Shown here in pieces: positions 27,012-27,672 of a stretch of DNA of 64,000 nucleotides. The notes under the pieces were generated by a model. The model had not been told where the DNA came from. It made no database searches and saw only the letters and a program-made list of their open reading frames with translations. The DNA comes from Escherichia coli (GTDB lineage: Bacteria > Pseudomonadota > Gammaproteobacteria > Enterobacterales > Enterobacteriaceae). Each line of letters opens with the position of its first letter. Position 1 is the stretch's first letter. The DNA is taken from the NCBI RefSeq assembly GCF_050920415.1, contig NZ_CP169309.1. One strand, written 5' to 3'. A program made the position numbers and the translations under genes.

Positions 27012-27642
27012 ATAAAAATCACCCAAAAAAACGATAACACACTGTACTCCCTGTGCTTTATAAACATAAAGTCACAACACATTCTATATTCATATTAATT
27101 AATGGCGCATTGAAAAAAAATTATATTATTCTTAACTCAAATCCATTAGCTAAATAAGCTTATATTCTTCACTCACAACCGTAACAAAAATAATATTATC
27201 GAAAGTTAAAGCTGGGACTATCAAATTTCGCTCATTTCAAACATACATTGTGATTTTTGCAATCATCTTAATCTTAGGGCCTATCATCATATGTTAAAAT
27301 TTTGTCAATAATAGAAAAGAATCTTGGTCACCTATCATGCGTTATAAATGTGCAGCTGGCTTCCTGCAGATGCTCTTAACTTCTACAGCAGGATTTATAC
27401 CAGCGTTTCAGAACTATCATATTTACCTTAAATGATCATTTCAGTCTTATAACACGCTCAGCCTCACAAATGGTTTACACTGTCTATTGTTTGGGTAATT
27501 TAAGTAAGTCAGCTACGATCAACCTTGAATGGGGAGCCAGCAATGGACTTAAGCCTAATCGGGTCTTCAGATTGTTTCAGAATTGTATAAAAAACAATGT
27601 ATTAAATAATCTGATTGTTTTTGGTCATAGTGTGACGCAGAA

Positions 27643-27668
27643 AGCAAGCCAATAAAGCAAGCCAATAA
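27643..27668. repeat. Perfect 13-bp tandem duplication agcaagccaataa x2, immediately upstream of the ybjP ribosome-binding site
   Basis: Read directly: agcaagccaataa at 27643-27655 and again at 27656-27668. Confidence 0.85.
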
Positions 27669-27672
27669 GGAA

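Follow-up and report, generated by a model that had tools for sequence, protein, structure and literature searches.

The window analysed here is a 64-kb stretch of Escherichia coli DNA with the E. coli gene order amiD-ybjQ, then ybjP-artPIQM. Between ybjQ and ybjP it carries an AT-rich insertion (here called the island) with one long ORF on the minus strand and, between the start of that ORF and ybjP, an interval of about 650 bp that ends in a 13-bp tandem repeat (Table 1). The last bases of the repeat run into the ybjP Shine-Dalgarno (SD) sequence, AAGGAA at 27667-27672. An earlier sequence-only reading of this DNA was right about this contact, but its ybjP start at 27673 has to be replaced by the second ATG at 27679 (171 aa) according to the RefSeq annotation of homologous loci, which puts the SD 6 nt upstream of the start codon.

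Table 1. Features of the ybjQ-ybjP region, in window coordinates
Feature	Position	Strand	Remarks
Retained ancestral ybjQ-ybjP spacer	25033..25089		ends one base before the native ybjP -10 position
AT-rich insertion (island)	25090..27664		~2.57 kb, 32.9% G+C; ECs_0949/0950 in O157 Sakai
Conserved left arm	25090..25146		invariant in 7 haplotypes; contains AGGAAATCATC (25119-25129)
Island ORF, pentapeptide repeat-containing protein (RefSeq), 589 aa	25242..27011	-	intact in the window
ORF-proximal leader half	27012..27400		in the hypervariable cassette; 76-84% identity between the two deep alleles
Promoter-like site TTGATA-18-GATAAT	27195..27224	-	10/12; probable island-ORF promoter
Conserved right arm, ybjP-proximal ~270 bp	~27401 to 27642/27672	+	90-97% identity between alleles; contains the 61-aa frame
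First 13-bp copy, AGCAAGCCAATAA	27643..27655	+	extra copy versus the ancestral allele is this one or the second
Second 13-bp copy, AGCAAGCCAATAA	27656..27668	+	end overlaps the ybjP SD
ybjP, lipoprotein, DUF3828, 171 aa	27679..28194	+	NCBIfam PRK10533, 1e-98; island-linked allele MRYRSLSLL...

The ybjQ-ybjP island and its gene

All 5424 matching complete E. coli genomes have both ybjQ and ybjP, and in 1123-1129 of 5426 (~21%) an insertion of ~2.5 kb separates the two genes. The insertion replaces 53 bp of the ancestral spacer, which is 125 bp long in the island-free strains NC101, H10407 and K-12 and measures 97-170 bp in nearly all of 80 ybjP loci from other Enterobacteriaceae. No homolog of the island ORF or of its leader was found in these 80 loci. 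Nowhere in the window but in the island does the G+C content fall below 36% (island 32.9%, whole window 50.2%). Because the ORF (32.2%) and the island as a whole are as AT-rich as the interval 27012-27672 (33.0%), this composition marks the island and not the leader in particular.

For the 589-aa protein, Pfam returned weak Pentapeptide_4 matches only, and NCBIfam a sub-threshold match to HalA (25 bits versus a cut-off of 250) that is explained by the repeats alone. Homologs are confined to E. coli and Shigella; a scan of genome contigs found no relatives outside E. coli, and PADLOC and PDB sequence searches gave no match. In the O157 Sakai neighbourhood the island (ECs_0949/ECs_0950) adjoins ybjP, which is ECs_0948. 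We considered and rejected an identification of the island ORF with EspX2 (ECs0876), as the Sakai annotation leads to ECs_0949/0950 and ECs0876 lies elsewhere.

The pentapeptide-repeat protein occurs in E. coli as two deep alleles with 71-73% identity at the protein level and 67-90% at the DNA level, and the window carries the rare one (~17 of 1129 carriers). The ORF is often a pseudogene. It is truncated in O157, frameshifted in 2013C-4282 and WP8-S17, partly deleted beside an IS1 in CUWW06, and interrupted in MFDS1022581 by an IS2 with a 5-bp target duplication (corresponding to window positions 25642-25646). This recurrent damage by truncation, frameshift and IS elements suggests ongoing decay.

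Strain-specific AT-rich insertions of E. coli O157, the S-loops or O-islands, are generally thought to be H-NS-silenced foreign DNA. The ybjQ-ybjP island resembles them in its low G+C content (33% versus 50%), variable presence, location in an intergenic spacer and frequent pseudogenisation. Unlike them, it has no mobility genes or terminal repeats that we could find, and it took the place of 53 bp of backbone that include a mapped promoter. Overall, it is a typical strain-specific AT-rich E. coli insertion and not a new kind of element.

Island-bearing genomes also have a distinct ybjP allele, which differs from that of K-12 in the 5' part of the gene (MRYRSLSLLIPC... versus MRYSKLTMLIPC... 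in K-12, 27679-27800), with a divergence that fades further into the gene. This fading suggests that the island spread together with flanking DNA by homologous recombination.

Other DNA was seen in the same spacer elsewhere. Three Citrobacter loci (L012, L013 and L014; ~875-4000) have unrelated inserts of 2.2-3.2 kb that are flanked by direct repeats of TCATTGAAAGG, the ybjP promoter/TSS motif; the one in L012 has a gene for an AppA-like histidine acid phosphatase. Inserts of ~125 bp resembling ERIC elements occur in several other genomes (loci L019, L022, L024, L029, L049 and L080). In HS-02 (L145, NZ_CP172818.1, 2170-2440), ~270 bp consisting nearly entirely of A and T replace the island at the same left junction (gatatgcCAT) and are followed by the backbone-like TATTGAAAGGATATCAT... 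and the island-linked ybjP allele; this spacer is either a real low-complexity insert or an assembly error. On the other side of ybjP, in the ybjP-artP gap, positions 28224-28260 (minus strand) gave a sub-threshold Rfam match to CRISPR-DR53 (25 bits versus a gathering score of 45, E=0.11). This G+C-rich inverted repeat is most likely a ybjP terminator or a REP-like hairpin, and not a CRISPR repeat.

The native ybjP promoter and the 650-bp interval

As tabulated in PMC2760140, the P1 transcription start site (TSS) of K-12 ybjP lies at -56 by primer extension (Lacour & Landini 2004) and at -55 in the DMTSS data. The gene reportedly depends on rpoS, and YbjP is reported to be a lipoprotein that partners with TolC (bioRxiv 10.1101/2025.03.19.644130). 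We mapped the K-12 TSS to the GG of TTGAAAGG, with a TATTAT hexamer (CTATTAT) ending 7 nt upstream; the motif ACGCTAT[T/C]ATTGAAAGGATA is conserved from Escherichia to Kosakonia. The left junction of the island, ...gatatgc/catgttggg at 25089/25090 (K-12 counterpart of the region: locus L144, 2035-1983), falls at the first base of this sigma-S -10 hexamer. Among the 53 replaced bases are the -10 element, the TSS and ~41 nt of the 55-nt ybjP 5' UTR. Judged by sequence, the island carriers, ~21% of the complete E. coli genomes and O157:H7 among them, are without the native ybjP promoter. The gene served and the SD/start context (ATAAGGAAAT..ATG) are the same as for the sigma-S P1 promoter of K-12, whereas the window has island DNA in place of the -10, the TSS and the greater part of the 5' UTR.

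YbjP has been detected in O157:H7 proteomes (PMC3210124, PMC3936929), and therefore the island DNA must supply a promoter. Since the insertion removed the sigma-S promoter, the TSS and ~41 nt of the 5' UTR, the ybjP-proximal ~270 bp would now substitute for the native upstream region, and the conserved right arm (27401-27642) would be the obvious place for a replacement promoter and 5' UTR. No strong island-type ybjP promoter was found in this arm: its sigma-70-like candidates are weak (7-9/12; for example TTGTAT-16-AATAAT at 27583-27610). A MAFFT alignment had suggested that the right arm is homologous to the ancestral spacer. This was rejected, as local alignment against shuffled sequences gave p values of 0.6-0.7.

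The 650-bp interval as a whole is the insertion's own non-coding DNA. A comparison of the window-type allele with haplotypes from six other complete genomes and 32 distinct ones from metagenomes revealed a hypervariable cassette between the two conserved arms. It extends from ~25147 to ~27400 and takes in the ORF together with the adjacent ~390 bp of the leader (67-90% identity between the deep alleles). The sequence-only reading had treated the interval as one 650-bp leader or long 5' UTR of the island ORF. Its description of the interval as non-coding and AT-rich is confirmed by the 33.0% G+C and by the lack of a conserved ORF and of an Rfam match, but the length and unity of the leader were overstated, as a conserved promoter-like site lies only ~175 nt from the ORF start and what remains of the interval is partly hypervariable and partly the conserved ybjP-proximal arm. 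The largest invariant leader blocks in the variable half, 27190-27200 and 27213-27241, coincide in 33 haplotypes with this promoter-like site (27224-27195). This site, the only strong conserved one on the strand of the ORF, is the probable promoter of the island ORF, with a predicted 5' UTR of ~175 nt instead of 650 nt. Promoter-like sites in the interval are no more common than in shuffled sequences.

The same reading had considered the interval typical of H-NS-bound DNA. It contains seven A/T tracts of at least 5 nt at 33% G+C, a composition like that of AT-rich curved DNA. The H-NS motif TCGATAAATT has one match in the leader, with 2 mismatches. H-NS binding to the interval or the island is plausible from composition only, and the island may be silenced by H-NS. 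The literature searched under the Sakai/EDL933 locus tags yielded no usable TSS, H-NS or expression data for the island locus.

Conserved stretches raise the question whether the interval harbours a functional element, be it a small RNA, a small protein or, for the island ORF, a long structured 5' UTR. Blocks of 24-29 nt are invariant in 33 haplotypes (27213-27241, 27421-27444, 27467-27493 and 27590-27615), conservation is much higher in the ybjP-proximal arm than in the ORF, and a z-score scan for folding reached ~-2.4 at 27510-27659 on the plus strand and found nothing beyond this. The folding signal, however, is a 9-bp A/U hairpin that is broken in the major allele, and a structured RNA was rejected, as the scan left only this non-conserved hairpin. 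There is no Rfam (Rfam 15) match at E<=1 on either strand of 27012-27672 and no terminator-like site in the interval. Open reading frames of at least 30 aa number four (34, 32, 61 and 32 aa) and are not conserved. In the major allele (O157), one 32-aa frame has ACG in place of its ATG. The 61-aa frame (27470-27655) is not preceded by an SD; 2 of 7 haplotypes interrupt it with an early stop codon, and its variable sites are spread 2/6/10 over the three codon positions, a weak bias towards the third. We likewise rejected the idea of leader paralogs, since a distant blastn search placed the interval at one site per genome; it is absent outside E. coli. Promoter function for both flanking genes can account for the conservation, as can a history of recombination that the interval shares with ybjP. 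We therefore regard a hidden functional element as unlikely.

The 13-bp tandem repeat upstream of ybjP

The two copies of the 13-mer are exact and arranged head-to-tail, so that the sequence across the repeat is ...gtgtgacgcagaa AGCAAGCCAATAA AGCAAGCCAATAA ggaaatgattatgcgc... This was evident from the sequence itself and from a pattern search, and Tandem Repeats Finder reported a single array (27641-27668, period 13, 2.2 copies, 100% matches), all in agreement with the sequence-only reading. Other sites in the 64 kb that resemble AGCAAGCCAATAA have 2 mismatches and are unrelated. No other perfect tandem duplication with a period of 10-30 occurs in the window; first-order Markov simulations gave a mean of 0.1 per window by chance.

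The duplication is rare. A 181-bp query across the repeat (27560-27740) had matches in 1129 of 5426 complete E. coli genomes, and outside the window the two-copy form was found in one of them only, MFDS1022581, with a 100% match. In 16 genomes, 168 of 181 positions were identical (92.8%, 168-bp span), representing the window sequence minus a 13-bp gap, that is, one copy (...GCAG AAAGCAAGCCAATAAGG in the alignments). Another 1111 matched with 88-89% identity over 166-bp spans, due to one copy and ~7 substitutions (major allele, ...GCAG ACAGCAAGCTAATAAGG), and HS-02 gave a partial match. In total, 1128 of the 1129 island-side ybjP upstream regions have a single 13-mer. Among metagenome contigs, the two-copy junction was not detected when either allele was allowed, and 51 contigs have one copy (major allele in 50, window type in 1). 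The single-copy form is the ancestral allele.

Short tandem duplications can be produced by mis-assembly, but the same duplication is present in the independent complete assembly of MFDS1022581. Over a further 24 kb this genome is 100.0% identical to the window, while all others reach at most 98.9%. The two differ by one IS2 insertion with its 5-bp target duplication and are therefore independent assemblies of one clone, and an assembly or sequencing artefact is hardly credible. Since the next-nearest genomes (N96, EC42405 and others; <=98.9%) carry one copy, the duplication would by parsimony be a single event on the terminal branch that leads to one E. coli clone.

Two origins had been proposed for the repeat: a junction scar of the island insertion, or a slipped-strand duplication. 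For the first, it can be said that the repeat sits at the right edge of the island-specific DNA and that its unit straddles the boundary. Backbones of the K-12 type share only ATAAGGAAAT with the island-bearing allele, and the island-less HS-02 shares AAGCTAATAAGGAAATGATT with it. A target-site duplication, however, should flank the insert with one copy at each end, and here both 13-mers are at the right end. The best match at the left junction (24991-25400), where a counterpart might have been expected, has 4 mismatches. All but one of the island-bearing genomes, near-identical relatives included, have a single copy, and empty sites have no such 13-mer at all, neither one nor two copies (sequence there ...CGATCGCTT / ATAAGGAAATCATT ATG). 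The earlier proposal that identical tandem copies in island-free genomes would identify the repeat as backbone is inapplicable for this last reason. As more than 1100 genomes have the island with one copy, 16 of them otherwise identical to the window across the query, the tandem copy is not an insertion footprint. The single copies in 1128 of 1129 island genomes and in 51 of 51 metagenome contigs also mean that the island long predates the duplication. Together, these data contradict the scar, and any target-site duplication or similar footprint is very improbable as the source of the 13-mers.

No terminal direct or inverted repeats beyond A-runs were found in the junction regions examined. 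The sole candidate for a flanking repeat pairs another sequence, AGGAAATCATC at 25119-25129, with AGGAAATGATT at 27668-27678. The former is located in the invariant left arm and matches the ribosome-binding site (RBS) of island-free ybjP exactly; the latter lies at the real RBS. This pair could be a true flanking insertion duplication, which is suggestive only (p ~0.03 in local-alignment shuffles).

Slippage, the second of the proposed origins, agrees with the data. The copies are exact and head-to-tail, and 16 relatives are identical save for having one copy. The one-copy allele reads AA-AGCAAGCCAAT-AA-GG, with a 2-bp AA microhomology 13 bp apart at the borders of the unit, also visible in the 2.2-copy phase of the Tandem Repeats Finder array. 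Such an arrangement is the expected substrate for slippage, and we infer this mechanism from it. The event resembles microhomology-mediated short tandem duplications of bacterial genomes in its exact, short, head-to-tail unit, its bounds of 2-bp microhomology and its occurrence in one clone with nearest relatives lacking it, and nothing about it is distinctive.

Consequences for ybjP

The sequence-only reading had also raised the possibility that the duplication alters ybjP expression. Such a regulatory or adaptive change might come about if the duplication altered the distance between the RBS and a promoter or operator in the island arm, made the 5' UTR longer, uncoupled the 61-aa upstream frame, or worked as a phase-variable repeat. 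The location immediately 5' of the SD speaks for it, as does the dependence of ybjP expression on nearby island DNA now that the native promoter is gone. A third point concerns the 61-aa frame, whose stop codon in the one-copy allele runs into the SD (TAAGGA); with two copies, the stop is shifted 13 nt away from it. RNA folding, on the other hand, predicts almost no change of the RBS. With seven assumed 5' ends, the energy needed to open positions -14 to +13 around the ybjP AUG differed by at most 0.7 kcal/mol between the one- and two-copy forms, in either direction, leaving the predicted accessibility essentially unchanged. The duplication creates no new SD and no strong -10, and no strong promoter overlaps the site. 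A shift of 13 nt might have an effect on a promoter or operator spanning the site, if there is one, and the separation of stop and SD would be relevant if the 61-aa frame were translated; against the latter stand its lack of an SD and its interruption in 2 of 7 haplotypes. The effect on ybjP is predicted to be small or nil.

Phase-variable promoter or 5' UTR repeats of Haemophilus and Neisseria share with this site a tandem repeat just upstream of a surface lipoprotein gene. Unlike these, the site has two copies of a 13-bp unit and no copy-number variation beyond one clone. Since all other carriers have one copy, the tract is not hypermutable and the site is not a contingency locus. Two carriers only (the window and MFDS1022581) are too few to speak for or against selection. 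On balance, a duplication that changes ybjP expression is improbable.

The above observations are most consistent with a recent, (nearly) neutral slippage duplication in one clone within the non-coding DNA of the ~2.57-kb island, a reading to which we give a probability of about 0.85. Slippage between the two AA dinucleotides would have duplicated the unit in the ybjP 5' region, at the right edge of an AT-rich insertion carried by about one fifth of E. coli. This insertion consists of a pentapeptide-repeat gene and non-coding DNA, whose ORF-proximal part probably holds the promoter of that gene and whose ybjP-proximal part may have taken over from the native ybjP upstream region. The repeat is a private polymorphism, not an insertion scar and not a recognisable regulatory device, and is at most a strain marker.

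A further reading would be that the island has rewired the control of ybjP in ~21% of E. coli through a new promoter in the right arm, with the 13-bp duplication as a secondary adjustment. We consider this unlikely. If it were true, the new ybjP promoter could be under the control of H-NS or of a virulence regulator.

By-products of modest value are the promoter loss in ~21% of E. coli, the arm-cassette-arm organisation of the island with its two deep alleles, and the ybjQ-ybjP spacer as a recurrent insertion hot spot across Enterobacteriaceae. Where the island is present, as in O157:H7 and about one fifth of E. coli overall, ybjP has lost the sigma-S promoter mapped by experiment, and regulatory knowledge from K-12 on the TolC-associated YbjP is therefore not transferable to the carriers.
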